DNA of 64,000 bases, taken from NCBI GenBank assembly GCA_041661345.1, contig JBAZUO010000001.1, forward strand, positions 11,298 through 75,297, given 5' to 3'. Source of the stretch: Candidatus Omnitrophota bacterium (GTDB lineage: Bacteria > Omnitrophota > Gorgyraeia > 2-01-FULL-45-10). Within the stretch, counting starts at the first letter, position 1. Every line of letters begins with the position of its first letter. Positions 3,686-25,434 of the stretch are shown piece by piece. The notes under the pieces were generated by a model. It searched no databases and was not told the origin of the DNA. It saw nothing but the letters and a program-made list of their open reading frames with translations. Both the position numbers and the translations under genes were made by a program.

Positions 3686-4249
3686 ATGCGTACCTTTATA
3701 GCGATAGAACTTTCCGATGAAATCAAAGACATCCTCGACCGGATCCAGTCTCACTTAAAATATGCCGGCGCGGATGTGAAATGGATCGAGAAAGATAATA
3801 TCCACCTCACCTTGAAATTCCTGGGAGAAATCGACGATAATAAGTGCGAAAAAGTCAAATCAGCCCTGGACGAGATCGCCAAATCTACAAAACCTTTCGA
3901 AATATCGTTAAAAAATATAGGCGCATTCCCGAAGATAGAATTTCCGCGAGTCATCTGGGTAGGTCTCGATAAAGGCGCGAAGGAATCGACAGAGCTTGCT
4001 TCAAAAGTAGACGAAGTGCTTTCGAAACTTGGATTCGACAAGGAAGTCCGCGCATTCGCCGCGCATCTTACCATCGGCCGCGTTCGCTCACCGAAGAATA
4101 AAGAAGAGCTGCAGGAAAGGGTCAATTCGTTTAGTAAACAGTTTACAGCAGACAGTTTACAGTATATAAATTCTATTTACCTACTCCAAAGCACACTCAC
4201 GCCTAAAGGCTCTATCTACACAAAACTTCACGAAGCAAAACTTTCTTAA
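3686..4249 (+). CDS. thpR: RNA 2',3'-cyclic phosphodiesterase (2H phosphoesterase, ThpR/LigT family)
   Basis: 187 aa with two H-x-T-x motifs, HLTLKFLGE and HLTIGR. Confidence 0.8.
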   Translation: MRTFIAIELSDEIKDILDRIQSHLKYAGADVKWIEKDNIHLTLKFLGEIDDNKCEKVKSALDEIAKSTKPFEISLKNIGAFPKIEFPRVIWVGLDKGAKESTELASKVDEVLSKLGFDKEVRAFAAHLTIGRVRSPKNKEELQERVNSFSKQFTADSLQYINSIYLLQSTLTPKGSIYTKLHEAKLS

Positions 4250-10300: not shown

Positions 10301-13300
10301 TCATTAGCGATGTCATAGAATAATTCAATATCATCCATACAGAGCCGTCCGTCCGAGTGATCGGAAGCTGAAACCGTAAGACGGACTATCGTGCCGGCGG
10401 ACAATCTATCCCCTTCAGCAAGAAGCAACATTGATATAATAGGTAATTCCCGGTATTTTTTACCTTCTTTGATTTCCAGCTTAAACAGAACTCCCGGAAA
10501 TTCCATTATCTTTTTCACGACAGATTCTAAAAGTTGATATGGGAAAAGGTGATGCTGCGTATTGAGCTCTAATTCTCTGCTGATACACATTCCGGCTGTT
10601 TTTGCCGCTATAGGCGGCTGCACGGCAGGCGATTCGGCTTTACCGGCTCCTGACAGGGTATCCCCCTGTAGGATGGCAGCTTTCTCGGGAACAGTATTAG
10701 CCGCGGCTGAGGATGGCGTTTTATCTTCAAAGTTTCCTGATAGCTTGTTGTATACGAAAATTCGACTTATCGCTTCAGGAGGCACATCTTCTCTTGTTGT
10801 ATCAGAGTCATCATATCCCGGAATTTTAGATTTTTCGCATTGAAGCACCACAATTACAAAATTCTCTTGAGGCTGGCCATACTTATACATGCCAAAAGCC
10901 CAAAAAGCTGTCTTCTTGGGATCTTGCTCAAAATTATAATAGTTTTTGTCAGTAGTTAAGTCGGATATTAACAATCCATCATGAAAAATTTTATTAAGGT
11001 CCTCTACGGTTAACCTCATACCGCGGTACCTAAATTTCTCACTGTCTGCAAGCATTGATGCCGGCATCGATTTCTTGCTTCCAGATAAAAAAGAACTTGC
11101 AACATCATCCCAGGTTCCACCAAATTCTGCTAAGTCGCGATAAATATGCACTGGTTCTATCATGACTTGCGGCGTCGGTCTTTTGACTGGCGGTTCCGCG
11201 GCCGAAGCGGTTTTTTGCTGATTAATTTCTCCGTACGTTTGTGGCACATTTAAACTAACTGGCGGTTCTTCCACTGAGGGGAATTTGGATTCAACCGGAT
11301 CCTTATGCTGGCGCGGTTCCCTCCTGGATCCCGGCGCTTTCTTATCGCCGCGCTTCGCGCTCGGCACCGATGCAAGCGTAATTGGGGACGCTTTCATTTC
11401 CGAACTTGATTTTGAAAGCGTCCCTGAATCTATTTGTGCAAAATACCCTTCCGCCATCATCTTATCCGCGCGACCAAGGTATCCGTTATTGCGTAAATAG
11501 GCAGCGCCGTTTTCATAATCGGTCTCGGTCACTCTAGCAGTGCGCTCGTATTCCGGAGCTTCCTGATCATACGGATCCACATCTATTATTCCCCATTTCT
11601 CCGTATGAGCCACATATTGGAATGGCTGATCTTCCGCTTTGCTAAACATACCCATAAGCGATGCCTTCTCGCCTAAAGACCTTAACAGGTAAATAACCAT
11701 GCAAGCATTACTCAAGCATCTTCTAAGATCGAAACTTCTTACCGCAGTTTTGACCTTAGTTATTAATTCAGCGTCTTTCTTTGCATTAGGCGCTTCCCGT
11801 AATAGAATAGCCTGGGACGCGTTACTTTGGGACTGGCCACTCACATCCGCTGCGGTTGGAACAAAACTTTTCATCTCCCTATATTGCGCAAACTCTTCCG
11901 GCGTAATCAGGGACGTTTTCATTTCTAAGTTCAAGCCTGTCCCCCCTGGCAAGGTTGCCGGGGACACATCTGATCTTGATTTTGAAAGCGTCCCTAAATT
12001 CTCCACCGCGGATGGGGCTGTCAACTCTGCGGCCGACGGCTGTCGCAGGGTGTCCCCTTGTGGGATGGCACCTTTTTTAGCGTTTGCGGCTTGCGCGGAT
12101 AATTCTTCGATGATCTTCCCGTTAAATAGGGCGGCTTGTTTGGGATCTATATTCAGCGGCACGCCGGCATTGTCCCTATTAAGCTCTGAACTATTAGTTA
12201 GGAAAGAAACTTCGCTTCTTCCGGCTATTGAGATAATATAAGGTTTCATCGCTTCAAATCGCTCCCGGGCCTCAGAATCTTTCATGCCAGGATTAAGGCC
12301 TACTATGATATCTATATCGAGATCGGCAACGCCTCCGCTTATCTCCATAGCGGCCAATTCAGCAAGGTCGTGCTCCTTCTCCGGAATCACTACATGTTTT
12401 AATGGTATCCTGGTAGCAGGGTTAAGAGCATCTAAAGAATGCGCAGTGTCAAGCCTATCTATGACGCCAGTAGTAGCCAAATAACCAAGATAATCGCCGC
12501 TGGTTAGATTGGAGTATCCAAATTTTACCTCTTCTTGCCAATCGATATCTTTTTTAGAGCCCATTTTCTTGCCCATATACGACCCAAAATCTCCATGAGC
12601 ATCAAGGTGTCTCCATACAACACCTCCGTTATTAATAATATTTTGCATTGACGGGCCATAATGCTCAAAGGCAAAGGAATAAGACAGGTTGTGCTGGCCG
12701 CCCCAGTAAATCCTCTTGCCATTTGCCAATATTATAATTACAAAATAACCATTACCTACTTTATATTTTTTGTCATTTATGGACACTTCGATAACCGGAT
12801 ATATTACAGATTGCTGTTGTTCAATTTCATATTGCCTCTGTTCGATATTAGCGGCGCCAAATGTAAACGGCTGATCCAGAGAAATGGTAATAGGTACAGC
12901 GGCTGATATGGCATCTTTTGGACTGTCATTATTTTTCTCAACCTGATCTCTTAAGAATACTTCAAAATCCTTTACCTTTATCTTATTTCGCTCGCCTGCG
13001 GGCCTTACAATCCGTCTGTAATCGACAATATTATCCGGCGTAAGAATAAATGGCCCATATCCGGATTTCATTAAAATATAGTTCAAGACAAAACTTGCGG
13101 CCCTTTTATTACCGTCGTTAAAAGGCTGGAGGTTGACTAACCTTACAAAAACGTGGGATGCCGCCTTAATAGGGTCTTGCTCTATCTCGGCGCTAAACTT
13201 ATCGGAAAACATATATTTAAATACTCTTCTGGTATCAGATATGTTATCGCCCATTTCGGCGCCATAACTACCGGCGTTTTTAATTACACCGCTGCTGCCT

Positions 13301-16300
13301 AACGTGGCATGAAATGTCTGGTATTTCTCCTCCATACGTTCAGCTGTCATGGGGCCGTTTAATATGAAGTCGTTAAAACTCCTGACCGCGGCGCAATATT
13401 GCGTCACCAATGACGGCACAAAATCTGTTTCGCCAAATTCCTGATCCGGATCAAGTTGCTGATTTATATATGAGATATCGCGCTGAATTTCATGCAAATT
13501 TCGCCCTACCGCTTCAATATCAATCTGGCTTCTGACTCTTTTACTGTGCCACACGCGTGAACTGGACATATCCCGGAGCGATGCTGCCGATAATCCCACA
13601 CCTGTCCCTGGTTTCGCAGCCTGATCGGGATTCTTTTTAACGGTCAATATATTCTCGGAAGCGCTGCTTCCCGGCCGCGCTTCGGCAACAGCCTGCGCGG
13701 CAAGTTTTGCAAGCGACGGATCCTCGCTTCTGGCAAAGGCAAAAAATGGATTGAGGCTGCTTGATCTGGCTATGCTGACGAGCGTTTCATATGCTGTAGT
13801 ATAAAATTCGTCTTTTTGTGGATAAGATGCCAGGGCGATAAGAAGATTGGGAACTATCATGTTGACGGGAACTAGATCACTATTATTTCCGCTTAATATG
13901 CCTAGATACTTAATCGCTTCCAGCTTATATTTAGGGATATAGGGCATCGCAAGCCCTTTTCTAACTTTAGATAATTTTGTTAGCACATCAATAAACGGTA
14001 CAATATCCTCAGCTGGCCCGGCCCTAATCTCCATCCACACAATATGAGTAAGCGAAAGCAGAATAGCGGGGTCATGCTCAAAATATTTCGACATCGCCTC
14101 TAAAAATTCCTTATCTCTTAATAATGGGCTGTAATCCAAAAATATATCATCTATCTTCCTGTGAATAAAATCTTCGTTATCATTTTTTCCGACCGAATAC
14201 GCGAGGGCGACGAATTTGCCGAAACCCTGTTTATATCTGTCCTGGCATGCAATACTCAGCCTTATCTTGTCACGGGCATTTGCTATCGCCCCTTCTTTAA
14301 TACCCGGAACTCTAACTAGGTACTTGATCTGGGCAAAATTTCTGCCCTTTTCAAAAAGGACCATTCTGCCTTTGGACGACTCGGGTATTAAGGCCTGGGC
14401 CATGGACTGCCTTTGTGTTGCAGTGAAACCAAGTATCTGCAATAACCTGTCATTGCCTTTCGGATCATTTACGGCCTCAAGAATCGCCCTGTCAATCTCA
14501 TCCTGAGACGCATCCGGTTTCAATCCCTGACCCGCAATAAGCGAGCTAAGGGACGTCCTATCAACCGAAAACGCCGCATCACCTTCGAACGCCGCGCCAA
14601 CACCCTTCTTTCGGTCGCTTTCTGCTTTCTGTGTTTCTTCTGTTTCGCGGATGAATTCCAGAATCTCTCCTTCATATTGCCTGCCATAATAACCGCGTCC
14701 CATTCTCAATATCGCGCTTCTCAAATCAGGAGTTAAAGTAAGCCCCAGAAAAAACAACTGTTTCAGCTCATCCAAAATTATCCTTGCCATCGGAACGTCT
14801 TTGCGCCCATCCGAAAATCGTATCGTTTGATTCAGGTTAAAACCGTCTATTGCGCTCGTTACGCTTTCTTCCGGTTTCGCACGGTCCCGGGCCGCATCTT
14901 CTCTAAATGCTCCTAAAGAATATAGTAAACGTACCGCTCTCATACTAATAAGCGCGTTGTAATCATCGGACGACCATCTCCACGACGGTGCTTTAAACGG
15001 CAAAAATTTCAACAGGAATTCGGCCCTCTTCCTTTTTGAAACGGTAATTTCATCAGAAGCTTCATAGTTATTTCCGAGTATCGTCATGGCTTCAAACAGA
15101 TAAGAATAGCCTTCTCCTGAGGACAATAGCTCCATAAACTTATCTTCAGCCTTATATATCTCTTCTTTGGAATCAGGAAATCGCTTAGTCAGATTTGAAT
15201 ATCTTTGCAATAACGCGTTTACACGCACGTTCGTTACGCTTTTTTGGACTGTCTCATCTTTTATTTTATCCGCGAAGACCTTAGCCGTATCAAGAAATTT
15301 AATAAACGCTTCGTCGGGCATATCCGTTAAACCGCTCTTTCTTATAACGGCCGACCTCCATATATCAGGCATCAACATGATCGCTCTCGTAACTGCCCCG
15401 TCAAAGAATTTATCTTCCGCTGTATGCCCGGCAATCAGGGGCATATCGGCTTTTCCCAGTATCCTGCGATAAGCCGACATCACCAATTCTTCATTTTTCA
15501 GACGCGAGGCGGCATGTCTTATATGGAATAGTAATAAATAGCTCTTAACATTCGCAAATGTCCTGTTTAGCGCGTCTAAAAACTCTTTTTGTTGGGATAC
15601 GCGTACTGTCTTATATTCAACAAGATAACTAAGGGCCCCTATTATCGCGGCCTGCTGATAAAAATCCCTGTTTTCCAGCCCTTTACATAGATATGAATAC
15701 ATATCATTAGAACTCTGAGCAGCATTCAGCAGCGCCGTTGTAACATCTTTAGTGTATGGCGCAGCCTTAGTCAATAATAGTTCGACCAACTCCGCATCCG
15801 GGAAACATGCCGCGCCTTCGATTGCCATTCTGGCCGTTATCTGGTTATCATCTTTGCGTAATTCACCGGCGATGAAATCCCTTATGCGGGCCCTGCATGC
15901 CGGCGTTCCATTCTTTGCCAGCTTCGGAACTATGATCCGCTGCAGATATAATCTATTGATCCTGTTTTCCGGTGATTCCACAAATGCCGAAAGTTCAGCT
16001 TCAATGGCTTCATCTTTAAAAGAAACGGCCCTGTCAATAGCGCCGAGCCGGTCAATGAAATTATCCTCCCGCAAACGTCTTTTCAGGATACCTGCCGCCT
16101 TATCCCGTTCTCCATACATGCAGAAATACTCCAGCTCCTTACCCATGGAAAGAAACGGATAAGGCCCTTCCGACTCCGCTACTATAAGGCCATGTACATC
16201 TTTATCAAATATATTATAGAGATCCGTCAAAACGGAAATCGCCTGAACGCCTTCCTTAAAACCCTCACCCTGGAAAAGCGCTGGTAATTGGCTGGTATAA

Positions 16301-19300
16301 GCCCTGTCTACTACCCACATTATCGTCGATGTAGTCTCCCTGCCTTCCAGCGAACCGATCTCCCAGATAGGGTTTGCGCCGAGTTCGAGGTATATGTCGT
16401 TACCCGCCTGCCGCGAAGAGGATTCGTGGTCGGTCACGGTAAAGTGGATCACTTTCCCGCGCAGTGTTGGATCAAAGAATTTTTTCGCAGCCTCCAGCAC
16501 CCTGCAAAAACGCTGCATCTTTTCATCATCTGGATATTGTTTCTTAAGCGCATCGATCTCGGCGCCGGTATCAGCGCCTTCAGCAAAGCTTATCCGCCCG
16601 GTATGCGCATTTGCGCTTTCCAAAACACTACCGATTTCCGATGCGGGTAGATTATCGGCAAGAATCTTTAATGCTACGGCCTTGCCGGCGTTTCCGGCAG
16701 TACACGGAAAATCGAACTTTAAGCCATTGTCACGCATCAGTGTAAAGATGTCCTGAAATGATAAGCCATTACCTTTATAACGGGTATGCATGTCGGCCAG
16801 GCTCTTATACCGGCCATCCGGCAGGTCAAGTTCCTGCACCATAAAAAGATGATAACTGTTTGCAGGTAACATAATATAGAGGCCGTTGTCACGCAGCTCC
16901 CGTCCGCTGCGAAGATACACCTCCCCGGTCAGACGGTCGGTAAAAGCAAAATATTGAGAGGGTACGGCCGATATGCCTAATTGGCCGGCGGCTTCTCCTA
17001 TCGGGATCTGGCTTGATATATCCCAATCAGCATAATTTCCGACAACTACCGCGGACCTCACCTTGTTAGTAGCATTATCTCTATCATAACGGGCAAAACT
17101 GAGAAGACCTGGATGCGAAGTATTGAATACAAATAATTGCCCTTGTCGTAGTAGGGGATCTTGCGCAATTGAGATAATTTTCCTGAATAACTCCTGTATC
17201 TGAGGCCTGGGCCTATCCACCAATGATAATTGATACCATTTTGCAGTCGCGCGCGCAAAATAGCCCTTGATCTGTTCAATAAGCACTATCGGCATTCCCG
17301 GCATGGCCGCTATCGCAAGAAATTGATTTTGTAAAATACGGCTGACTTCTTTTGGAAGATCTCCGTATCTTTTTATAGCGGAAGGTTCGTCATCGTGCGA
17401 AATGATGCTGTACGCCCTCTTGAATTGTTCACCGATATACTCATTCATTAGATATTCTTTCAACTGCTCGATCCTGCCTTTATTGAGAAGGTTGAATACA
17501 TGTGTCTGCGAAATGTAGTCAAAGCCGCAGCGTTCGAGAGCGTCGAACAGCCAGTACGCCTCCGCTATAAATAACGCCTTAGGATTTATAGTGCGTACCG
17601 CCTGGATCATCTCGTCCCATAGCTCCCTGGGCCAGTACCAATTGATATCACGTGGACCCGCCAGGTTAGGATGATGCCACCACATATCGAGAAATCCTCC
17701 TCCGCCATCCTTAACCGTATTCATAGCGCAATCACAGCGGAACCCTTCGACCCCCTCTCTGGCAAATTGGACCGCAGTATCTATGAGGGCCCTACGGACA
17801 TTAGGATTGGTGACATCCAGAAGTGCCATATCGCGCCAGTACTCACCCCTATTTCTCATAGCCGATTCCGTACCATGTGCAACCAGTATCCATCTATTAA
17901 GCTTCGTGGAACAATGTAAAAAATATCCCGGATTCGCTAAAAGTATCCGGTCAAAAAGCTCTACCAGTTCCACGTGGGCGCTATTCCATGCGCCGGCGTT
18001 ATCTTTGTCGGGAAGGTTACGCATGGCACTCAACGCAAATAGCTTCTCATTGTCTTCATATGAAATATCTTTATGGACATACCAATAATCATCGCCCTCC
18101 TGCAGGCTTTCATCCTTTAACCACTTACAGTCGATAGCCGTACTATGGGCAACCAGGTCCAGGGATATGCCAATCTTTAGCTCCTTAGCTCTTTGCAGAA
18201 GGCGCCTGAACCCTTCCCACCCCCCAAGCTTTGGATTGAGCAGGAAATTATCGGGTATCGAAAATGCTGAAGCTATAAAGTCCGTGGTATCATGAGAACC
18301 ATTCCTGACCACGGAAATAACACGCCCTTCCTCGTCGCGATCGTAATAAAAATTGTGGACATTATCATCTTGTTCACCCTGGGACTGCTTGCGGCTTACT
18401 TCGCTTTCCCGGTATGCACCCAGAAGGTAGACGTGTTTTATACCCATACCGCTTAACGCTTCGAGCTCTTTCACTATATCGTCAAATGATTGGAATAACC
18501 TCGCATTAACGGATACAAGCACGGAACCGCGCTCCTGACGGGATAGGCTCTCCCTGTAAGAGCGTGTCTCTTCAGGCAATTTTTGCTCGCACGTCTGCCA
18601 TAGCTTGTCAGCGGGCATCAATTCCGCCTGCTGCAGCAACTCGGCAGGTATTTCTACATTGCCTGGTACAACCTCGTCTTTCTTCGCTAAGAGCGCCTCG
18701 AACGTCACGGGCATCCGCCAGTTCCAGTTCTTGTCGTGAACCTTCCCGGGCTCGTTTATTCTGGATATCCTTGGAGATACTTTTAGCTTACCCTGGATCG
18801 ATCGGCAGCTGAAATCTGCCTCATCCATGACAGTATACATTCTGTCTTCGGCAAATTGCGGACTCTCTTTTTCCCCGATACTTACTCCATATGCATTTGC
18901 AAATTCTGCCGTTCTCCTTCGCTCCCTATCGGAAAAATTTTCGTAACGACCAGCAAACGTTGGTTCCGTATCATGTGTTTCACTTACTGCAAGCATGTGC
19001 GGACGTGTAGCTATTCCCGAGTCTCTCCACCCTATTACATTGTATAGGTAAAGGTTCGGTAATTTTAATGAGAGCTCGTCCAGCATATTCCTTACATTTT
19101 CCGGACGCTCACCCAGGTCTTCACCGATAATAAGTAAATTACTGGCTAACGCAGCGCTAGCCAGTTCTGTTATGGTTTCACGCCCTGCCTTCTCCATATC
19201 GGCGGGTAACGCGGGGTAAAATTTACCTTCCAAAGCCTTCTTACCTTCTTCTACCAGCCATTCCGAGCACAATCCCAGTAGGTGGTCTATTCTTACGCCA

Positions 19301-22300
19301 TGATAAAATTGGGCCGCATATGTTATACGCCGTTTCCAGTAATTCAGAACTTCCTGCCTCTTTTCACCCCACCTATAAGCAGGCAATCCCCAATTCTGCC
19401 CATCATCATTAAACTGGTCTGCGGGAGCGCCGGCATTTTTTTCGAGGTCGAACAACTCCTGGTTGGCCCAGACGTCGGCACTGTTCTTTGACGGATATAT
19501 CGGCAGGTCTCCTATCAGGAATTTATTAAGTTCATCGGCATGTTTTTTTGTCTTAAGCGCTCTCTTGTAATATAGCCACTGCGCATATTTATAAAATTCG
19601 ATCTCTTTACTATGTTCCTTCTTGAAACGCTCGATGTCCTCCTTATTATTCGGATTCCCGGGATCCCGGTATTGCTCCTCCCACTCGCGCCAGTATTTAC
19701 CTTTATGATGATCTAGTAAAGTATGGAATAGCGCATAATTGGCAATCTCTTCACGAAATTCGTAATTATTTACATAGCTTTCAAATTGTTTAAATTCTTC
19801 ATTCTTCGGATCGGCGCTGCACTTGGAACAAAATTTTTCGAATTCCCGACTCAACACGTATTCCTTAAAAGCATATAAAAGCTGATAGTCGACTCTTTGC
19901 GAACTTTTAGCGTCAGATAATTTTAATTTAACATATGCCTCTATCTTGTTTTTTAATATTTTTTCATCCCGCACTACGATAACTCCTTGTGCAGCCATTT
20001 CCCTGATAAGTGACGGGCTTATATCCGCACCGGGGTCTATATAGTGAAGTTTAAGGTATGATTTTATGAAATCCGATTGCGTGGCTACAAACGATTCTAT
20101 ATACGCTTCGCGTTGTTTTTTATCTATCATCTCATCAAGCGGCAGATTCATGATAGCATTGTTAGCAAAAAGGCTTATGCTGTTATATGGGCTTGGCTCG
20201 CTTGACGACGTTTGATTCGTAGGGAGCAAAAATGCCATGTCGTAATCTTCATGCGCCAGATAATCTACGAATTTATCTAATGATGCCAGGTCTCCGACGC
20301 CATCGTCGCCTTCACGCCGCATAGAAAATAGCGGGCATAGAAGCCCGCGCCGCTTTTTTTCAGTCCACCAGTATTTTACCGGAGCGGCCTTATTGCTCTG
20401 CGATAAAACATTTGCAAGATACGGCAATCCGACAACCGACGCAGAAATTATTGCGCAGAAATCGGACCAGGTAAAATGGCCGGACAAAAGTAATTTGACT
20501 AATAAAACTGCTATAGCCGCAAGAATAATGAAACTCTTGATAAAATATGTGATCGAGAAATTTTCGAGACTGAAAATGCTGGGGGTGCTTGATGGCAGAT
20601 ATATCTTCGTGCTCCACGGAGGAAGATTTATCTCTTCTTCACGGCCTTCTACGGGTACTTTAATATTGCCTGTAAAATTATTGCAATAATTTACTATTAT
20701 GATCGCTTTTTTGCCGTTATATTCACGCTCAAACGCTATAACGGTATCCGGATTGCCGATATCAAGAACTTTACAACTGCCGAATCTAAATATGTCGTGA
20801 TATTGTTTATTATGTATGACGCCTCCCAATGTCTTATATTGGTCAATGACTTGCTGATTATCCTGCTGAGGCGGGCCGCGGATGAGATTTGCCTTAGCTA
20901 TCCAGTCTGAATGTCCTTTCTCCTGCCCTTCATATACTAAAGAACTCCCTGGAAGTGTATACAATAATGTCGCGGCCGCAAGGGAAGCCGGCATGGAATC
21001 TTTCTCGCCTATACTATGTTTTAATAGATTGATAATCCTGTCTTCCGAGTCATGATTTTCAAGATACTTTATGAAATTTTTCTTCCCAGACGCACTCACA
21101 TAATCTCTGAGAAATCTTTTTATACCCTGAACATCCCTATTTACCATACATTTCAGGAAATAGTCTTCATAATAGTAATCAAACCCTAAATCAGCGGCAA
21201 GATTACTATGCCCATGGCTTCCGTACATCTCGCCGAGTATCACAATGTTCGGGTATTTTTTCTTCAAATCTTTTATGGTAACCTTCCAGAAATCCTCTCC
21301 GGGATAGATTTTATTGAATTCTTCTTCCGACAGATGACTAAACCAGTTCCATCTTATATAATTCTTTGTGGTAAGAAATACCATGTCGAGCCGTATCCCT
21401 CCACCATTAGTTAACTCGGCGGCTTTAAACAAGACGCTTCTCATATAATCACGCATGGCTTTTTGAGTATAGTTAAATTGTACGTCATCTATCCATGGCA
21501 GGCCTTTCCCGTCGTTATATCTCACATCTCTTCCATAATAGAATACATTTTGAGAGGTTGGTTCGGGGATAGTCGAATCTTCTTTTCCGCAAGTACCGGC
21601 CTGAAACACCGGATTGGGGGTATTTTCCGGTTTCAATTTTAGGCGAGTCCTATTCCCTTCTATCCACAGCTTGGCTTCATCTTCGGAAAGATTTGATGAA
21701 AGGCTCATGAAATATTCCGGGCATTCTTTGAATAACTGACTGTCTACCGCCATATGATTAGGCACAACATCGATCATGACCGCAATCCCAAGCTTATTTG
21801 CGCGTCTTACGAGATCTCTGTATTCTTTTTCGCCTCCCAAATCTTTCGCTATTTCATAATCCGTTATCGCATATGAACTTGCGGCGCGCTCCATAGGTTC
21901 CTGATTTTTATTGCGCCAATAATCATTCACCTCTTTCGAATATGGGCTCGTCCGCCACACACCCATAAACCACAATATGTTAGCTCCTGATTCATCTCTA
22001 TACCTCATAAGGTCTTCATCGGTTATCTGACTGAAATGCTTACCCGTCGCTCGCATATTTATTTCGTATATTATTTCATCACCCTTTTCGGCCTTAGATG
22101 CTGATCGCCGCTTAAATAATTTACCTAAAAACACGGATGCAAGCAGCGCAGGCATTATAAAAATGTAAGGATGTCCGGATAACACTGCTGCCGCGACAAC
22201 GCCTATTATGACGGCCGATAAGACACAAGCGCCCGCATATTCGGACTTGAAAAACCTCTTTAAAGACTCAGCCGCTTTTCTAAACGGCTCCAAGGCCTTA

Positions 22301-25300
22301 TCCTTCGCAATTTGCGCAAATATTCTCTCCAGTTTTCCCATGTCCGTATACGTTCCGAATTTACCACTCCTCATCATTTCATAATTACTAGGAAACAAGT
22401 TTTCACGAAAATATCGTGATTCCTCCCGGTTAAAGTAAGGCTCTATCGCAACGGTAAAAAGATATTCATAGAGAAGCGGTTTATCGGATTCTACACGATC
22501 CAACACCTCTCTTGACAGAAGTGCAGTCTGGGGTAGAGATTTGTCTAAAAGTTTTTGCATAGCCGCGGAGAAACGATCAGTTTCCGCATTACTCGAACGC
22601 GTCAAAGTGTTAAAACCCAATATCCATGTTCGCGGCTTCCATATTCTTACCGGTTCGTTCAGGACAACAGCATCAAATTCTTTTACATTGAATTCAGCCC
22701 TGGAAAATTTATCAAGCGCCTCCAATAGCCCCTTTATTTCTTTTTTGAGAAGCGGATTCTTCAAATGAGCAATTCTGTTCCAAATAAAAGAGACGAAATC
22801 ATATCTGCCCCTCAATTCCAGATACTCTCTTTTGGCCGGGCTTAACACCTGTCTTTTGATTTTATCAGATACATTTTTTGCATCACTATAAACTGCCAAC
22901 GGCCTTTTCTCGTACACGCCGTCTTCCGGCATCATCTCCTTTTCAAGCGATGTAATACTGTAATTATAATCTATCTCTCTAAGCTCCAGGTTCTCAAATC
23001 CATTGTATCTTTTCAGAAATGTATTCGCATACTCCTCGGCTTCATCTATTTTTTTTAATTCCTGCCTTGAGATAGCCGCCTGCCTGTGCGAGGTGATAGC
23101 GCGTTCAATCGTATTTTTTAAAGGAAATCTTTCAATAATTTCTCTTGCGGTATCTATTTCCGGCCTCGTCATCCGCCTGGCAAAACCCATACCCGTCAGA
23201 TATTTTTCAAGCTCGCCTTTTTTTGAATCTCCGCCATTCTCAGTTCCCATGAAGTCATCCCAAAACTTATATCGCAATGACGCGGCAACAAGATTCCTGT
23301 AGCAGTAATACGGCAGAAAACCTCCTTTATCGGTAAGCTGAACGCCTTCCGTTGCGAGCTTCATGCTTAGATAAGCCTTCCGAGCCCATGGCCGCACCCC
23401 CATCCCCTCGTATATGTCCAGAAGTTTTCCGCTTTTTGCGAGTGCTTCTCCAAAATGAATTTTATCGCCGCTCTTCCTGCCCTGCCTAAGAAGCAGGTCT
23501 ATCTCTTTTTCGAGATCTATCGCGAGCCACAGCATTTGCCCGTATCGCGCAAGAGTATCTCTCTCCATAAAATGCTCCAGGCTCTTCCTGAAATCCTCCA
23601 CATTGATCAATCCGCTATTCTCTCCGCCCTCTTTCCTGGTTTTGAAAAAGTTTCTGGTTAAGTCGTTCCTTATAACCCGGGTCTCTTCTTCCGATTTAGA
23701 TTCACTGTCTATAAACCTCTGGCCGTAAATAAGAGCAGCAGCTATCTCCGGCTCGCTTGCTTCCTCGATAAAACGGGAGGAGAAGAATATGACAGACCTA
23801 TTCCTTCCGACATGCATAAAGCGCACGATATTGTAATCCGGCTCGGAGAAGAGAAGCGGCGTCTCTTTGTCGAGCTCTACGATAGTCGTATATTCCGAAT
23901 TTACAAGCATATCTTTCAGGTATCCATAACCTATCTTTGATGCCTGCGATTCCCATATCCGCCTGGCCCTGCGCACCTTATCGGCATGAGGGGTATTTTT
24001 TCTGTCTTCGGGCTGAGTTTCGGCATATTGCGGCATTATTCCATTACGGTATATCTGCTTTTCCTTATCTTCGCTTTCCATAAGAATCCCTTTAATGGAA
24101 TAATGAACAGCGCTATCTCCCCTGGTATGCTCGGAGATACCCATGCCGGTAAAGACTATATCTTCGGAGGGCTTTGTAATTTTGAATTTTTCCGCCATCA
24201 AATGTTTTAAATAGCCATTTTCCTCAGACGGATTGTTCCTATTCGCCGTCAAATAAAACAATAACAGGCCATAAAAATTTATGCTGGCATGCAGAGTCAA
24301 TTTACCGTTTTTTATAACGTTAAAGGATTGGACGATAAGGTCTTCTTTTTCGACCATCTTGCTTCTGAGCTCACCTGCGCCATGACGTCTCAGTATTTTT
24401 TCACAGTAATCGGTAAATTCACCCGTATCGTCGAAATCTTCTTTCAATCTCAGAAGAAAAATCCTATACAACGGATCAAAAAATGTATCTGTATACTCTT
24501 TCGGATTGGATAGGATATCATACAGTGAGATCGTATTATCGTTCTTGTAAATCCTTATAAGCTGCAGAAGCCTGTCGGTCAATTCCGTAAGTTGAGCCGA
24601 ATTTCTTATAGCTTCTATGTTCAATCCGTATACATTATCCCTGTAAAGCCTTTCGCGAATCAGCTTACGCGCAAGACAGATAAAGCCGTATAATAAGAGC
24701 ATAGTTGCGCTGCTTATTACAAGAGCCGTGCGCAAACTGTCAGGTGACCATGCCCGCAGATTAGATTCGGCCAACGTCACTACAAGCGTTCCCAGGCTCA
24801 ATGCGGCGGCCGACACGATTGTCCACCATGCGTATCTATAATATTTATCCAGGCGCGCAAGGTCCTTCTTCATATCAGCCATATTAGCCGCCGGCTTAAG
24901 AACGGATTCTACTGCTTTACTTGGATCGGCCTGTCCGTTACTATCAGGTATTAGTATGCGCTGTCTCCATAAACCAGGGAATATCTCCTCGGCCGTTACT
25001 GTAGCTAACCTGCTATAGGGCTGAGCGGATACCTTTGTCGGATCGAAATAACGCAGAAGCCCCCAGCCGGGAACACGGATACGAACCGCCCCTATTTCAT
25101 CATTTGCGCATCTCTCATCGCTGTAAAAAATATGGTTATCCTGTATCCACCCTATGATATCTTCGCGATTTAATATACTTTTTATTGTGGGTATCGATGG
25201 ATGAGAAATAAAATCTTTTTGAGATTCTATCAGACGCTCGATGAATACACCCTCAGCCGTTTCTTTCTTACCTTTCTGATGGAATAGCGTATCGGGAGCC

Positions 25301-25434
25301 AGCTTATCGCTTGAAGATCGCACAATAAATGAATCCGGGTGCGACCAGGCGATATCCTGGGCAAGGAAAGTTACAATTAGGACAATAGATATTATCCTAG
25401 TTACAAGAGGAAATTTTTTGTAGCGGTTATTCAT
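4393..25434 (-). CDS. giant 7,013-aa multi-domain protein with several hydrophobic (putative TM) segments; contains GH13, GH77, GH13, Fic/Doc-like and other enzyme-like modules
   Basis: The ORF track shows 21,042 nt with no in-frame stop. The N-terminus has a hydrophobic anchor, FPLVTRIISIVLIVTFLAQDIAW. Module motifs are detailed in the findings. Confidence 0.85.
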   Translation of the reverse strand: MNNRYKKFPLVTRIISIVLIVTFLAQDIAWSHPDSFIVRSSSDKLAPDTLFHQKGKKETAEGVFIERLIESQKDFISHPSIPTIKSILNREDIIGWIQDNHIFYSDERCANDEIGAVRIRVPGWGLLRYFDPTKVSAQPYSRLATVTAEEIFPGLWRQRILIPDSNGQADPSKAVESVLKPAANMADMKKDLARLDKYYRYAWWTIVSAAALSLGTLVVTLAESNLRAWSPDSLRTALVISSATMLLLYGFICLARKLIRERLYRDNVYGLNIEAIRNSAQLTELTDRLLQLIRIYKNDNTISLYDILSNPKEYTDTFFDPLYRIFLLRLKEDFDDTGEFTDYCEKILRRHGAGELRSKMVEKEDLIVQSFNVIKNGKLTLHASINFYGLLLFYLTANRNNPSEENGYLKHLMAEKFKITKPSEDIVFTGMGISEHTRGDSAVHYSIKGILMESEDKEKQIYRNGIMPQYAETQPEDRKNTPHADKVRRARRIWESQASKIGYGYLKDMLVNSEYTTIVELDKETPLLFSEPDYNIVRFMHVGRNRSVIFFSSRFIEEASEPEIAAALIYGQRFIDSESKSEEETRVIRNDLTRNFFKTRKEGGENSGLINVEDFRKSLEHFMERDTLARYGQMLWLAIDLEKEIDLLLRQGRKSGDKIHFGEALAKSGKLLDIYEGMGVRPWARKAYLSMKLATEGVQLTDKGGFLPYYCYRNLVAASLRYKFWDDFMGTENGGDSKKGELEKYLTGMGFARRMTRPEIDTAREIIERFPLKNTIERAITSHRQAAISRQELKKIDEAEEYANTFLKRYNGFENLELREIDYNYSITSLEKEMMPEDGVYEKRPLAVYSDAKNVSDKIKRQVLSPAKREYLELRGRYDFVSFIWNRIAHLKNPLLKKEIKGLLEALDKFSRAEFNVKEFDAVVLNEPVRIWKPRTWILGFNTLTRSSNAETDRFSAAMQKLLDKSLPQTALLSREVLDRVESDKPLLYEYLFTVAIEPYFNREESRYFRENLFPSNYEMMRSGKFGTYTDMGKLERIFAQIAKDKALEPFRKAAESLKRFFKSEYAGACVLSAVIIGVVAAAVLSGHPYIFIMPALLASVFLGKLFKRRSASKAEKGDEIIYEINMRATGKHFSQITDEDLMRYRDESGANILWFMGVWRTSPYSKEVNDYWRNKNQEPMERAASSYAITDYEIAKDLGGEKEYRDLVRRANKLGIAVMIDVVPNHMAVDSQLFKECPEYFMSLSSNLSEDEAKLWIEGNRTRLKLKPENTPNPVFQAGTCGKEDSTIPEPTSQNVFYYGRDVRYNDGKGLPWIDDVQFNYTQKAMRDYMRSVLFKAAELTNGGGIRLDMVFLTTKNYIRWNWFSHLSEEEFNKIYPGEDFWKVTIKDLKKKYPNIVILGEMYGSHGHSNLAADLGFDYYYEDYFLKCMVNRDVQGIKRFLRDYVSASGKKNFIKYLENHDSEDRIINLLKHSIGEKDSMPASLAAATLLYTLPGSSLVYEGQEKGHSDWIAKANLIRGPPQQDNQQVIDQYKTLGGVIHNKQYHDIFRFGSCKVLDIGNPDTVIAFEREYNGKKAIIIVNYCNNFTGNIKVPVEGREEEINLPPWSTKIYLPSSTPSIFSLENFSITYFIKSFIILAAIAVLLVKLLLSGHFTWSDFCAIISASVVGLPYLANVLSQSNKAAPVKYWWTEKKRRGLLCPLFSMRREGDDGVGDLASLDKFVDYLAHEDYDMAFLLPTNQTSSSEPSPYNSISLFANNAIMNLPLDEMIDKKQREAYIESFVATQSDFIKSYLKLHYIDPGADISPSLIREMAAQGVIVVRDEKILKNKIEAYVKLKLSDAKSSQRVDYQLLYAFKEYVLSREFEKFCSKCSADPKNEEFKQFESYVNNYEFREEIANYALFHTLLDHHKGKYWREWEEQYRDPGNPNNKEDIERFKKEHSKEIEFYKYAQWLYYKRALKTKKHADELNKFLIGDLPIYPSKNSADVWANQELFDLEKNAGAPADQFNDDGQNWGLPAYRWGEKRQEVLNYWKRRITYAAQFYHGVRIDHLLGLCSEWLVEEGKKALEGKFYPALPADMEKAGRETITELASAALASNLLIIGEDLGERPENVRNMLDELSLKLPNLYLYNVIGWRDSGIATRPHMLAVSETHDTEPTFAGRYENFSDRERRRTAEFANAYGVSIGEKESPQFAEDRMYTVMDEADFSCRSIQGKLKVSPRISRINEPGKVHDKNWNWRMPVTFEALLAKKDEVVPGNVEIPAELLQQAELMPADKLWQTCEQKLPEETRSYRESLSRQERGSVLVSVNARLFQSFDDIVKELEALSGMGIKHVYLLGAYRESEVSRKQSQGEQDDNVHNFYYDRDEEGRVISVVRNGSHDTTDFIASAFSIPDNFLLNPKLGGWEGFRRLLQRAKELKIGISLDLVAHSTAIDCKWLKDESLQEGDDYWYVHKDISYEDNEKLFALSAMRNLPDKDNAGAWNSAHVELVELFDRILLANPGYFLHCSTKLNRWILVAHGTESAMRNRGEYWRDMALLDVTNPNVRRALIDTAVQFAREGVEGFRCDCAMNTVKDGGGGFLDMWWHHPNLAGPRDINWYWPRELWDEMIQAVRTINPKALFIAEAYWLFDALERCGFDYISQTHVFNLLNKGRIEQLKEYLMNEYIGEQFKRAYSIISHDDEPSAIKRYGDLPKEVSRILQNQFLAIAAMPGMPIVLIEQIKGYFARATAKWYQLSLVDRPRPQIQELFRKIISIAQDPLLRQGQLFVFNTSHPGLLSFARYDRDNATNKVRSAVVVGNYADWDISSQIPIGEAAGQLGISAVPSQYFAFTDRLTGEVYLRSGRELRDNGLYIMLPANSYHLFMVQELDLPDGRYKSLADMHTRYKGNGLSFQDIFTLMRDNGLKFDFPCTAGNAGKAVALKILADNLPASEIGSVLESANAHTGRISFAEGADTGAEIDALKKQYPDDEKMQRFCRVLEAAKKFFDPTLRGKVIHFTVTDHESSSRQAGNDIYLELGANPIWEIGSLEGRETTSTIMWVVDRAYTSQLPALFQGEGFKEGVQAISVLTDLYNIFDKDVHGLIVAESEGPYPFLSMGKELEYFCMYGERDKAAGILKRRLREDNFIDRLGAIDRAVSFKDEAIEAELSAFVESPENRINRLYLQRIIVPKLAKNGTPACRARIRDFIAGELRKDDNQITARMAIEGAACFPDAELVELLLTKAAPYTKDVTTALLNAAQSSNDMYSYLCKGLENRDFYQQAAIIGALSYLVEYKTVRVSQQKEFLDALNRTFANVKSYLLLFHIRHAASRLKNEELVMSAYRRILGKADMPLIAGHTAEDKFFDGAVTRAIMLMPDIWRSAVIRKSGLTDMPDEAFIKFLDTAKVFADKIKDETVQKSVTNVRVNALLQRYSNLTKRFPDSKEEIYKAEDKFMELLSSGEGYSYLFEAMTILGNNYEASDEITVSKRKRAEFLLKFLPFKAPSWRWSSDDYNALISMRAVRLLYSLGAFREDAARDRAKPEESVTSAIDGFNLNQTIRFSDGRKDVPMARIILDELKQLFFLGLTLTPDLRSAILRMGRGYYGRQYEGEILEFIRETEETQKAESDRKKGVGAAFEGDAAFSVDRTSLSSLIAGQGLKPDASQDEIDRAILEAVNDPKGNDRLLQILGFTATQRQSMAQALIPESSKGRMVLFEKGRNFAQIKYLVRVPGIKEGAIANARDKIRLSIACQDRYKQGFGKFVALAYSVGKNDNEDFIHRKIDDIFLDYSPLLRDKEFLEAMSKYFEHDPAILLSLTHIVWMEIRAGPAEDIVPFIDVLTKLSKVRKGLAMPYIPKYKLEAIKYLGILSGNNSDLVPVNMIVPNLLIALASYPQKDEFYTTAYETLVSIARSSSLNPFFAFARSEDPSLAKLAAQAVAEARPGSSASENILTVKKNPDQAAKPGTGVGLSAASLRDMSSSRVWHSKRVRSQIDIEAVGRNLHEIQRDISYINQQLDPDQEFGETDFVPSLVTQYCAAVRSFNDFILNGPMTAERMEEKYQTFHATLGSSGVIKNAGSYGAEMGDNISDTRRVFKYMFSDKFSAEIEQDPIKAASHVFVRLVNLQPFNDGNKRAASFVLNYILMKSGYGPFILTPDNIVDYRRIVRPAGERNKIKVKDFEVFLRDQVEKNNDSPKDAISAAVPITISLDQPFTFGAANIEQRQYEIEQQQSVIYPVIEVSINDKKYKVGNGYFVIIILANGKRIYWGGQHNLSYSFAFEHYGPSMQNIINNGGVVWRHLDAHGDFGSYMGKKMGSKKDIDWQEEVKFGYSNLTSGDYLGYLATTGVIDRLDTAHSLDALNPATRIPLKHVVIPEKEHDLAELAAMEISGGVADLDIDIIVGLNPGMKDSEARERFEAMKPYIISIAGRSEVSFLTNSSELNRDNAGVPLNIDPKQAALFNGKIIEELSAQAANAKKGAIPQGDTLRQPSAAELTAPSAVENLGTLSKSRSDVSPATLPGGTGLNLEMKTSLITPEEFAQYREMKSFVPTAADVSGQSQSNASQAILLREAPNAKKDAELITKVKTAVRSFDLRRCLSNACMVIYLLRSLGEKASLMGMFSKAEDQPFQYVAHTEKWGIIDVDPYDQEAPEYERTARVTETDYENGAAYLRNNGYLGRADKMMAEGYFAQIDSGTLSKSSSEMKASPITLASVPSAKRGDKKAPGSRREPRQHKDPVESKFPSVEEPPVSLNVPQTYGEINQQKTASAAEPPVKRPTPQVMIEPVHIYRDLAEFGGTWDDVASSFLSGSKKSMPASMLADSEKFRYRGMRLTVEDLNKIFHDGLLISDLTTDKNYYNFEQDPKKTAFWAFGMYKYGQPQENFVIVVLQCEKSKIPGYDDSDTTREDVPPEAISRIFVYNKLSGNFEDKTPSSAAANTVPEKAAILQGDTLSGAGKAESPAVQPPIAAKTAGMCISRELELNTQHHLFPYQLLESVVKKIMEFPGVLFKLEIKEGKKYRELPIISMLLLAEGDRLSAGTIVRLTVSASDHSDGRLCMDDIELFYDIANEILTSRDSVSRNKEAFDYRDQINQRLKEHFEEIRTRTLPVAESPAQAASPTSKTGPGLPAESSQLAPEWMPLMVTPVSDRSESDYPDFSAPDFVEMENEMLIKRADIHLDEFTRSKEVAVFGFSYEEFTKIVKLCPNASVYHLFNYSPFCVKISASEIWEHFPELRGRVKIYNVDAAEAGQYLQQGSVQLLMANGVMSSEFAGEEKDTTIFKVIQKITASTGLAVIRFFPDINSKEAPRIEKMIHACGTLICAMRDTGCPIYIFRNSKESPVAEPTTGTTGLILPKTFVNALGCFGLDPKLSYKELSYFQKFLIGWYAAFVERYDLSKMFSLVQFLKEHENIRWYHWMSRSMGIGAVWIAMTYSLIITMQLLASNFGIPPELGLLLAYSLRIHQIANIVTHGLYNTFILWAPLTMSKWDQLDEFRRDLKSVDNGVIGKLRKSTGNLGECRRTLMDLGIAFSSEVDGKFLIEEIKSLLETRVSTEVSQPVSNILRQWYEGKHLVSFIGVDPSFKYIVKTYPDQARRKIVIDKWLEEGWLVAQGKLNGLAVPTLVIAATKPGENEFKFFVEGIGTKKTDVAIIQKKVIPLKDIIMENIKTGRIDEAKGLIDRYKQLFIDIFRRGAVDVDYGDPLGNYGVDPETGHIYIFDFGELSSGVDTAYEFTDGIAYVNAYIEDTLRKEVSAAVADYYNGNPFTEKDFYNEKGTFLFGIDYNREKSDSYKVSFPYDEEEARELFYQYHDGGGDGGGRVRFTDESESGAPYRAKFYKTPINKLNGAISRKGYRDGPESATPAAAEQGEKLNPDVVPPSLGGMANIPYHIQEMLSTGPKQRREVVAAFKGNIQPAQVETEIEKLMTAGDVVEEAGVLRLAQAVAKPQAKVYAQILELIKERSCLEKTGLTNSEIEELEHIARSLIVEDRIRVVGYGGFLMKVENNVLWIDEEALSELDDLELKAWLLHELVHLLPDQRRRMDDAYDWYEKMFYQLKIATREYEERIKAAYSLDDRGKEYRRALRHLMYSKIKSEAKAYMVEILYLQSSIGNLSEYWKDRGMHTRKMDLKETYSFLLELLDSEGRIDEKKLHVKQVRLLRDYGDLSIFANFLFFEIKGYYDIGYYGGWKTEEEYEDELWRWVSTYNRAEENAAPAAAEASKPKTTGLIKFARAAYERDRFAYLKRHFGPEEESFSEHPSVSWCVSGASGDYITVEFYDANDLSDKDEVPGLVAKISLSQNSGSIELRPRLSIPESHPLRKARPLICEKLKSLASTLGMSFEHNADLTPIPAAAEQEINISPDVIKMRARAAETRRITRDEDRADIEQRFGKNVRYNAPPSEPPSKLENLISDACQRAERSISTRFFPDKNRLLRKSSKIAATAILSIHPDEKEAYVYSLMAKIDRLRNIPSEYWTDLDRIIWNIYIELNNFARRRGFIITSAMGMAGFLLHIPVNSIFTPAPINIGQFRSPMAETLYKLGRYDLAFAAEAKHRGYAQGIKKVLGDMSNGEEIANLAAKAMDASDTDNAVGSVRDLTPMMVPPFRKSVAENIAGQLEADPLSFRTDYDPFGLGMEKKIFDTAVNRLADEYSEDLIGQYSPHDKDPRKVLGFLISEIGSNIRFSGPNPLDHKYHLTDNIFNTAKVHNGLQEDALSLMQRMGCSGQADFIERFGQDEWNWMQQWVSQPPSPQSEPTTDASGAKENAAQAVNSRQSAPASTATVDKGSNEILGTEPTMPATETIAHPGAPLAQPFSEIPQVMPEPSVAPTISTIPAEALVKENDVSSTIDLIDKIFKDVNIRSGAAVLLSENLFIENGDRTELEQGIKIALKPVLDSGAIAILSPEEIRAQIKRNPSKDKLAVVLSKEDNDGSEIWKSDEERNYAKASVLIVGDKLTGENYLYLQGVIGLARAIMSGNRQAIAYYYKILSGSDIGDDILKLLDNAEWNNIAFALKAILRFKGLCRMDPEELKASRIRMETLLIAA

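Follow-up and report, generated by a model that had tools for sequence, protein, structure and literature searches.

Three alpha-glucan enzyme domains and paired hydrophobic segments in a mosaic 7,013-residue protein of Candidatus Omnitrophota

We analysed a 64,000-nt stretch of DNA from a Candidatus Omnitrophota bacterium (positions 11,298 to 75,297 of contig JBAZUO010000001.1, assembly GCA_041661345.1; hereafter, the window), which contains a 21 kb gene encoding a protein of 7,013 amino acids (aa). This protein carries three consecutive alpha-glucan enzyme domains, two from family GH13 and one from family GH77, with pairs of hydrophobic segments situated on either side of the first of them. 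The region is likely to be the alpha-glucan module within a long, mosaic protein that unites several enzymes and associates with the membrane, of a kind already described in Omnitrophota. The features on which this reading depends are the following, with positions counted from the first nucleotide of the window:

4393..25434, minus strand: the long gene, a single open reading frame (ORF) of 7,013 aa
22114..22245, minus strand: hydrophobic pair 2, just ahead of GH13-1, with turn LSGHP (aa 1064-1107; Kyte-Doolittle values up to 2.59)
20596..22083, minus strand: GH13-1, an AmyB-like alpha-amylase-family domain including its C-terminal beta-sandwich (aa 1118-1613)
20395..20562, minus strand: hydrophobic pair 3, in the linker between GH13-1 and GH77, with turn LSGHF (aa 1625-1680; 20401-20562, aa 1625-1678, in the scan; Kyte-Doolittle values up to 2.57)
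18706..20346, minus strand: GH77 4-alpha-glucanotransferase (amylomaltase) domain (aa 1697-2243)
16825..18522, minus strand: GH13-2, a divergent alpha-amylase-family domain (aa ca. 2305-2870)

The reading frame is uninterrupted by internal stops, and its product is 100 % identical to a protein (P0001) deposited as 'MAG: 4-alpha-glucanotransferase [Candidatus Omnitrophota bacterium]' from a 114.5-kb contig (NCBI/JGI), MAG standing for metagenome-assembled genome.

Three enzyme domains with intact catalytic residues

Pfam matches were judged against gathering scores, with cut-offs of 22 bits for PF00128 and 25 bits for PF02446. Domain GH13-1 matched the Alpha-amylase profile PF00128 along aa 1183-1516 (E 2.4e-25, 90.1 bits), and its conserved regions DVVPNH, GIRLD(1350), GE(1402)MY and NHD(1462) align to those of structure 4GKL, the catalytic residues being D1350, E1402 and D1462. 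The alignment of GH13-1 with six stand-alone homologues of 470-520 aa begins at the motif IYEIN and takes in the whole C-terminal beta-sandwich; the seven sequences are invariant in region I, in the R-x-D of region II (D1350), in E1402 and in the NHD motif (D1462), and GH13-1 contains an insertion of ca. 40 aa after region I. The nearest solved structures in a phmmer search of the PDB were AmyB from Thermotoga neapolitana (4GKL, E 1.9e-10) and an amylase from Lactobacillus plantarum (3DHU). A model of GH13-1 generated with AlphaFold2 (AF2) from the homologue alignment reached predicted local distance difference test (pLDDT) values of 70-97 in the barrel core and displayed the fold of a (beta/alpha)8 barrel plus a C-terminal beta-sandwich; its top Foldseek matches were all GH13, the best one being again 4GKL (E 6e-18).

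The GH77 domain matched Glyco_hydro_77 (PF02446) along aa 1701-2242 with E 5.4e-86 and 289.7 bits, covering positions 2-460 of the 465 of the profile, and Thermus amylomaltase (2x1i/1cwy) with E 6e-40. Its motifs VRID(2050)H, IGE(2105)DLG and ETHD(2155)T align with HLVRIDH, LAEDLG and GTHDN of 2x1i, and its catalytic residues are D2050, E2105 and D2155, which we take to be equivalent to D293, E340 and D395 of the Thermus enzyme. Domain GH13-2 gave the second PF00128 match, starting at ca. aa 2391 (E 7.6e-8, 32.4 bits). A sequence search against the PDB yielded a best E of only 4e-6 for it, and its AF2 model (pLDDT 75.4, predicted template modelling score 0.77) was matched by Foldseek to neopullulanase, TreS, amylosucrase and GlgE with E of ca. 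1e-20. The catalytic residues D2568, E2625 and D2681 do not vary among seven relatives, and GH13-2 is 43-55 % identical to domains of the Omnitrophota proteins P0005, P0006 and P0007.

None of the three domains reached an NCBIfam equivalog cut-off, many GH13 equivalogs matching below threshold, and the Foldseek matches of both GH13 domains were scattered over many subfamilies at 12-19 % identity. A recent duplication as the origin of GH13-1 and GH13-2 was rejected, their identity being 24 % over 150 aa only. Judging from their sequences, the three domains are complete and, with intact Asp/Glu/Asp triads, look catalytically competent. The original prediction that three real alpha-glucan enzymes are fused in one chain was thus borne out, all of them scoring above the Pfam gathering score with triads that are intact by alignment, and each of the motif strings quoted in its support occurs exactly once in the protein. 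The kinship with glgE-like enzymes that it mentioned found no such backing: GH13-1 is nearest to AmyB (4GKL), and GH13-2 falls in a clade composed mainly of Omnitrophota long proteins.

Hydrophobic pairs in linkers outside the enzyme folds

A Kyte-Doolittle scan located pairs 2 and 3 at the positions where they had been noted before, together with further hydrophobic segments: one at the N-terminus (aa 9-29), another pair (aa 203-256) and two weaker segments (aa 5398-5416 and 6468-6486). The helices of the pairs have 18-24 residues each, enough to span a bilayer, and AF2 modelled helix-turn-helix structures for pair 2 (aa 1067-1086 and 1089-1113, pLDDT 42-55) and for pair 3 (aa 1629-1650 and 1656-1680, pLDDT ca. 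54-64). The linkers are short: pair 2 is followed by ca. 10 residues, GH13-1, ca. 11 residues, pair 3, ca. 16 residues and then GH77. The stand-alone homologues of GH13-1 start after pair 2 and finish before pair 3; because they fit between the pairs, and because GH77 begins ca. 16 residues after pair 3, the pairs do not correspond to buried cores of the enzymes. As linker hairpins, they would therefore leave all three catalytic domains on the same side of the membrane. If they are indeed hairpins, or re-entrant anchors, the three domains should thus face one side, and GH13-1 would be moored to the membrane through a tether of ca. 10-11 residues at either end.

That the hydrophobic stretches lie outside the enzyme folds, as anticipated, agrees with the ends of the GH13-1 homologues and with the helix-turn-helix models (pLDDT 42-64), and the same-side argument built upon their linker position holds. 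The enzymes had also been described outright as tethered to the envelope, a statement for which hydrophobicity is the sole basis and that is kept conditional here.

The turns of pairs 2 and 3 share the sequence LSGH, at aa 1083-1086 (22176-22187, minus strand) and aa 1648-1651 (20473-20484, minus strand). This hydrophobic-SGH-hydrophobic pattern was found in no other protein among those of at least 1,000 aa that were compared.

A conserved leader and conserved end modules

The N-terminal part and the C-terminal end of the protein contain four additional features:

25342..25434, minus strand: N-terminal leader (aa 1-31), whose motif heads ca. 16 related ORFs
24667..24828, minus strand: hydrophobic pair 1 (aa 203-256; Kyte-Doolittle values 1.8-2.15)
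23002..24519, minus strand: conserved module N2 (aa 306-811), 34 % identical to P0002
4396..4974, minus strand: conserved C-terminal module (aa 6821-7013), 40 % identical to the C-terminus of P0002

The N-terminus reads MNNRYKKFPLVTR-IISIVLIVTFLA-QDIAWS/HPD and consists of a basic n-region, a hydrophobic core of 12 residues and a polar stretch; positions -3 and -1, which precede a conserved xP, are occupied by small residues, as seen by eye in the sequences inspected. The motif F[LI]AQDI[AS]W[AS]xP is present at the N-terminus of P0002, P0008, P0011 and P0013 and of ORFs in 14 metagenome loci (L003-L016), often with an n-region of the form YRKFP.V.R and a core of 12-13 residues; a stricter version of the pattern, scanned over the compared proteins, matched N-termini only. 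The ca. 16 Omnitrophota ORFs bearing the leader range from 342 aa (L016) to 7,013 aa. To judge by these sequences, the leader is more conserved than ordinary signal peptides, and it is probably a signal peptide of the Sec type, with a c-region particular to the family.

Two complete members of the family show how the modules are combined: L008 (2,135 aa) contains the leader, the N-domain, a GH130 domain and the same C-module, and L013 (2,114 aa) contains the leader and N2; in both, the leader is the sole hydrophobic segment. The C-terminal module, which ends in LLxAA, is 42 % identical to the C-terminus of the L008 product, and N2 is also found in L001/L009, L002 and L013 (29-34 % identity). 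The leader region, N2 and the C-module had no match in Pfam or NCBIfam, and N2 had none in the PDB either.

In L002, N2 is situated in the middle of an ORF of more than 7,000 aa, beside GT2, HAD, ATP-grasp, transglutaminase and DnaJ domains; in different proteins, N2 and the C-module bracket or accompany variable enzyme cargo. Pfam did not bear out a GT2 domain that visual inspection had suggested in L014/L015.

A mosaic of modules shared with other Omnitrophota long proteins

A HMMER search with aa 1690-2880 as query against 1.84 billion cluster representatives retrieved 7,771 matches, the best 150 of which were listed. The best ones are Omnitrophota proteins of 1,000-8,000 aa in which either GH77 or the GH13-2 block is located next to other enzymes. 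The relatives of the GH13-2 type include P0005 (5,531 aa, 54 % identity), P0006 (6,281 aa), P0007, P0014 and P0016, and those of the GH77 type P0008, P0009, P0011, P0012, P0013 (3,130 aa), P0017 (3,610 aa) and P0019 (7,967 aa). Most of the relatives looked up are proteins from Omnitrophota MAGs, named for glutamate dehydrogenase, radical SAM (S-adenosylmethionine), kojibiose phosphorylase or phosphoglycerate mutase, and the relatives and loci are labelled Omnitrophota or Omnitrophica. Alpha-amylase domains are joined in P0003 with glycogen phosphorylase, fructose-1,6-bisphosphatase (FBPase) and phosphoribosyl pyrophosphate (PRPP) synthetase, and in P0004 with phosphoglucomutase (PGM) and pyruvate phosphate dikinase (PPDK). 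Blast comparisons extended the similarity to other parts of the protein, with aa 13-144, 306-811 and 6821-7013 matching P0002 and aa 3588-3941 matching P0017 (49 %). The gene is thus a mosaic of shuffled modules, since the nearest relatives of each domain are situated in other Omnitrophota long proteins.

The trio did not recur as a unit. No Omnitrophota-type GH77 followed by a GH13-2 block was found among the best 150 of the 7,771 matches, where both domains occurred together only in ordinary GH13/GH77 fusions (ca. 25 % identity), and a scan of GTDB genomes for single proteins with the trio retrieved no relatives. Membership of the chlamydial Inc proteins, with their bilobed hydrophobic domains, was also considered and dropped, the protein being from Omnitrophota, and stays as an analogy only.

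Proteins of this general kind have been described before. Giant genes of Omnitrophota encode many transmembrane (TM) regions, glycosyl transferases and hydrolases, with ambiguous topology (West-Roberts et al. 2023, bioRxiv 10.1101/2023.11.21.568195); a class of 'multi-enzyme metabolic cluster' with a sugar-metabolism Pfam module has been defined among catalogued long proteins, 94 % of which have TM helices or a signal peptide (Nielsen & Lui 2026, bioRxiv 10.64898/2026.06.07.730766); and giant ORFs were noted across Omnitrophota classes (Seymour et al. 2023, PMC10066038). The texts of these three works do not mention GH13, GH77 or Fic. The arrangement had been called unusual in the original prediction, a judgement that is not sustained, given that GH13 and GH77 are also fused in ordinary bacteria and that TM-rich multi-enzyme long proteins were already known from Omnitrophota.

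Remaining modules and genomic setting

Two further features were delimited in the rest of the protein:

14596..18717, minus strand: conserved block containing GH13-2 (aa 2240-3613), found by BLAST in P0005 and P0006
12985..13236, minus strand: Fic/Doc-like domain (aa ca. 4067-4150) with motif QPFNDGNKR

The conserved block is 41 % identical to P0005 (1,411 aa aligned) and 35 % identical to P0006 (1,144 aa aligned), and it extends ca. 730 aa past GH13-2. Searches of Pfam, NCBIfam and the PDB with the other ca. 5,000 aa identified the Fic/Doc-like domain only (Pfam Fic, E 4e-7; FICD structures, E 2e-5; DOC_P1, E 5e-4). The Fic/Doc active-site motif is HxFx[DE]GN[GK]R, in which the His is catalytic; QPFNDGNKR is the Doc-type NKR variant with this His replaced by Gln, and from its sequence the domain is probably not a canonical AMPylase or kinase.

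Residues 5916-6177 (6904-7689, minus strand) form a block in common with P0006 (37 % identity), with the motif HELVH at aa 6001 and a very weak Pfam match to a phage metallopeptidase (E 0.11); this block may be a zinc peptidase, as far as the motif goes. Besides the Fic/Doc-like domain and the HELVH-containing block, the remainder of the protein comprises ca. 4,000 aa of modules without a profile match. At aa ca. 5396-5460 (9100-9250, minus strand), a hydrophobic segment is followed by two H-x-x-x-N motifs (HQIAN and HGLYN), and the TM cluster of P0002 contains FTLAH and HSLYN. By eye, the H-x-x-x-N motifs are reminiscent of intramembrane proteases of the CPBP/CAAX type, with no profile match. 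Low-complexity linkers in aa 4459-6330 (ca. 6445-12060, minus strand) contain the repeated motifs PAAAE (three times), QGDTL (twice) and GTLSKS (twice); also by eye, P0005 has many linkers similar to R-x-SP[ST]G and L006 several similar to KPGEQDMAAP, the motif differing from protein to protein. These linker motifs could be processing sites or recombination joints. The idea that internal linkers copy the c-region of the leader, as in a shared protease site, was discarded because only three internal matches were found, in L006 and in the 7,013-aa protein, and the resemblance is not general.

The neighbours of the long gene are ordinary chromosomal, housekeeping genes. It is flanked on one side by thpR, in convergent orientation, with recX, recA and cinA also on that side, and on the other by pgsA-rimO-rodZ-ftsK-pnp, in the same strand, with ribF and truB also on that side. 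Genes for DHH phosphoesterases, a tyrosine recombinase, ligA, riboflavin genes, a gene for a GGDEF protein and smc are situated farther out in the window. Among the ORFs of 150 aa or more that were covered in the window, none is a sugar-transport gene or a stand-alone glycogen gene. Upstream of the long gene is a gap of 660 bp in which a hairpin resembling a terminator, after pgsA, and two sites resembling promoters were noted, in numbers not clearly above the shuffled expectation.

The G+C content of the long gene (0.41-0.48) is slightly below that of the flanking housekeeping genes (0.47-0.50; positions 4001-26000 compared with the flanks). An antisense ORF of 180 aa (11699-12241, plus strand) lies entirely within the gene and is most likely spurious. 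A second long ORF (57568-63984, minus strand), of at least 2,138 aa, seems to continue past the end of the window; its residues 1547-1856 form a GH130 (beta-mannoside phosphorylase-like) domain, of a family that is also represented in the leader-bearing protein from L008.

Membrane side and possible function

In the mechanism that we propose, each pair would be a helical hairpin entering and leaving the membrane on the same side, and the three enzymes would be gathered on a single face of it. Glucans with alpha-1,4 (possibly alpha-1,6) linkages, i.e. glycogen or maltodextrin, would be shortened or transglycosylated by the GH13 domains, and the GH77 domain would disproportionate the resulting maltooligosaccharides, delivering small sugars beside the membrane for uptake or catabolism. 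The caution, voiced from the start, that the side of the membrane cannot be read from the sequence was justified, because the signals from the leader and from the residues flanking the hairpins are in conflict. We nevertheless lean, tentatively and with less than even confidence, towards the outer side (periplasm or surface) of the inner membrane of the producer, to which the Sec-like leader would give access and where the enzymes would work on glucan derived from a host or prey. This leaning stems from the n/h/c architecture of the leader, with its small residues at -3 and -1 and its conservation in ca. 16 ORFs, and from the relatives: the sole hydrophobic segment is the leader, or a similar N-terminal one, in proteins containing GH77 (P0008 and P0011) or the GH13-2 block (P0005 and P0007), and it is the leader in those containing N2 (L013) or the C-module (L008). 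Since these modules would be outside in leader-only relatives, and since the hairpins come in pairs, the same modules would therefore be outside in the 7,013-aa protein. A location other than the outer face, the producer's own cytoplasmic face or a host cell has only a slim chance.

A number of observations weigh against an outer location, or against the proposed activity as a whole. Over the six flanks of 15 residues that border the three pairs, lysine or arginine (K/R) occurs 25 times versus 11.4 expected (resampling P ca. 3e-5), with five and four K/R per 15 aa in the flanks of pair 1, and the hairpin turns are short and nearly uncharged. According to the positive-inside rule, basic flanks are cytoplasmic, and therefore so would be the flanks and the enzymes. 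Basic flanks as a rule for the hairpins of relatives were not supported (means of 2.3-2.4 K/R versus a background of 1.85, in 15 hairpins), the signal coming mainly from the 7,013-aa protein and P0002. Additionally, the cargo of leader-bearing relatives includes a SAM methyltransferase (P0011) and GNAT acetyltransferases (P0002), and P0005, with a similar leader, has a Glu/Leu/Phe/Val dehydrogenase domain in its name and a CxxxCxxC motif; the methyltransferase, GNAT and dehydrogenase domains should need cytoplasmic cofactors. Bacterial GH77 enzymes are as a rule cytoplasmic, and a scan of the ORFs of at least 150 aa in the window revealed no genes for secretion, pili or sugar import. The hairpins were modelled by AF2 with low confidence (pLDDT 42-64). 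As to the enzymes themselves, the GH77 domain scored below the cut-offs of the MalQ equivalogs in NCBIfam (TIGR00217/PRK14508), with 302.9 versus 556 for NF011081 and 182.8 versus 205.65 for TIGR00217, so that by sequence it is a member of family GH77, but not nameable as an orthodox MalQ. Region I of GH13-2 reads DLVAHS, with His at the usual Asn position and Ser at the usual His, and the relative P0003 retains NH. The activity of the GH13 and GH77 domains on alpha-glucans is a prediction from sequence.

The basic flanks and uncharged turns would be accommodated directly if the hairpins, with their short loops outside, pinned the protein under the inner membrane of the producer, with the trio acting in the cytoplasm on endogenous glycogen or on maltodextrins taken up from outside and the relatives with phosphorylase and phosphoglucomutase covering other steps of the pathway. 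This is a realistic alternative, if a doubtful one: thousands of residues would not need to be translocated, and the combination in P0003 of alpha-amylase with phosphorylase, FBPase and PRPP synthetase and in P0004 with phosphoglucomutase and PPDK agrees with it, as do the published sugar-metabolism module, whose starch synthase, PGM and ROK kinases take nucleotide sugars or ATP as substrates, and the prediction that 46 % of the catalogued Omnitrophota long proteins are TM-only with the bulk of the chain in the cytoplasm (Nielsen & Lui 2026). However, the conserved leader, with its basic n-region and 12-residue core, predicts N-in/C-out insertion or cleavage, and the even number of later crossings would then leave the enzymes outside; furthermore, the same modules in leader-only relatives would sit on the opposite side from the copies here, and the K/R pattern is not general across the hairpins of relatives. 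Export to a third compartment would reconcile the export-type leader, the cofactor-dependent cargo of the leader-bearing relatives and the basic hairpin flanks: the cargo would reach an attached host or prey cell, the trio would mobilise host glycogen and the hairpins would enter a host membrane. We deem this unlikely. Glycogen enzymes are secreted by Chlamydia, the MARTX toxins have conserved ends around variable effectors, and here conserved N and C modules bracket a variable cargo, with short linker motifs, repeated within individual proteins, that could be processing sites; moreover, Omnitrophota have been described as epibiotic predators or parasites, and peptides from a giant ORF were up 3-fold in attached Velamenicoccus cells (PMC10066038). 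Against it, a delivery mechanism would be needed that is neither known nor encoded nearby among the ORFs scanned, the Fic/Doc motif is without its catalytic His, searches of Pfam and NCBIfam yielded neither RTX repeats nor a cysteine-protease or another toxin-delivery domain, and secretion itself is only inferred. In its most specific form, which we rate as distinctly improbable, the whole leader family (342 to 7,013 aa; FLAQDIAWAxP leader, N-domain, shuffled cytoplasm-type cargo and C-module) would be a MARTX-like delivery vehicle that places enzymes in or on an attached host and drains its storage glucan, the basic-flanked hairpins anchoring the cargo in the host membrane.

Two other explanations concern the chain itself. 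Whichever side of the membrane it faces, it could be made as a precursor and then be processed at linker motifs to release the individual enzymes, the fusion being transient, as the motifs repeated within the protein (PAAAE, QGDTL and GTLSKS), the R-x-SP[ST]G-like linkers of P0005 and KPGEQDMAAP-like linkers of L006, the HELVH motif at aa 6001 and the published suggestion that C39/S8 peptidase domains may cleave giant proteins would allow. Such a polyprotein is not very probable, because no peptidase family was found at a significant E-value in the 7,013 aa with Pfam and NCBIfam, the repeated motifs differ from protein to protein and, in this one, all lie in the C-terminal half and not at the borders of GH13 and GH77, where the hairpins sit, and the resemblance of linkers to the leader c-region is not general. 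The gene could also be an artefact, either of a chimeric assembly or as a row of fused or pseudogenised genes rather than one real protein; the sequence is metagenome-assembled, and its G+C is somewhat under that of its neighbours. This is extremely improbable in view of the stop-free frame over 21 kb, the conservation of the catalytic residues, the retention of both the N- and the C-terminal modules in independent proteins, including the complete 2,135-aa ORF of L008 with both ends, and an identical N-terminus on the independent contig L004.

Significance

Published proposals for the giant and long proteins of Omnitrophota range from the digestion of prey walls to membrane-anchored metabolism. 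At 7,013 aa, the protein described here is unusually tractable, with three modules of textbook, assayable chemistry and intact active sites, and with no more than three hairpins plus a leader around them, and hence offers a compact test case for the membrane side and the enzyme activity of these long proteins. Action of the enzymes outside the producer's cytoplasm would support a lifestyle of scavenging host glycogen, and action inside would support membrane-tethered 'enzymes on a string' in ultra-small cells. A specialist familiar with the giant genes of Omnitrophota would not be surprised by the protein itself; what is new is the conserved leader and end modules, as a handle for collecting a wider protein family.

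Comparison with known systems

AmyB and Thermus amylomaltase are soluble single-domain-family proteins. GH13-1 resembles AmyB (4GKL) in having a region II without the usual Lys/His (GIRLDMVFL versus GFRCDVAGL), although their identity is 19 % over the Foldseek alignment, and the match of the GH77 domain to Thermus amylomaltase (1CWY/2X1I) omits the first ca. 160 residues of the query. For work outside the producer's cytoplasm there are precedents in MalS from E. coli and SusA from Bacteroides, GH13 enzymes that trim alpha-glucans in the periplasm for uptake, and in Chlamydia, which secretes glycogen enzymes, including those of MalQ/GlgX type. SusA (9fyz) was among the structure matches of GH13-1; nevertheless, all of these are separate enzymes of ordinary size and without hairpin tethers, whose homology to the domains here was seen at the level of the GH13 and GH77 families.

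Ordinary fusions of GH13 and GH77, such as the bifunctional GlgX/4-alpha-glucanotransferase of NCBIfam PRK14510, share with this protein the presence of both domains in one chain and the alpha-1,4-glucan substrates, and the GH77 domain also matches PRK14507, a malto-oligosyltrehalose synthase model of 1,693 positions. The HMMER matches listed included such fusions of 1,000-1,700 aa (P0034, P0044, P0079, P0086, P0148 and P0026). They are ca. 22-25 % identical to the protein described here, whose scores fall far below the cut-offs of these families, and they have two domains and mostly no hydrophobic segment, whereas the present protein combines three domains, with hairpins between them, and a further 5,000 aa of other modules.

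The closest likeness is with the Omnitrophota giants of the 'Archaeovorin' type of West-Roberts et al. (2023) and of the class of Nielsen & Lui (2026). They come from the same phylum and consist of one ORF tiled with different enzyme domains and long unannotated stretches, with TM helices, a signal-peptide-like N-terminus and a sugar or alpha-glucan theme, their domains being divergent and their sequence mosaic with few close relatives. The differences lie in size, 7,013 aa versus survey thresholds of at least 10,000 aa (Nielsen & Lui) and at least 30,000 aa (West-Roberts); in domain content, no SecA_DEAD, C39, dockerin or glycogen-synthase domain having been found here with Pfam; and in context, since the giants frequently have type II secretion or sugar-import genes nearby, whereas the neighbours in the window scanned here are housekeeping genes. 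The protein is thus a smaller, uncatalogued sibling of the giant multi-enzyme proteins already described in Omnitrophota, and not a new kind of system.

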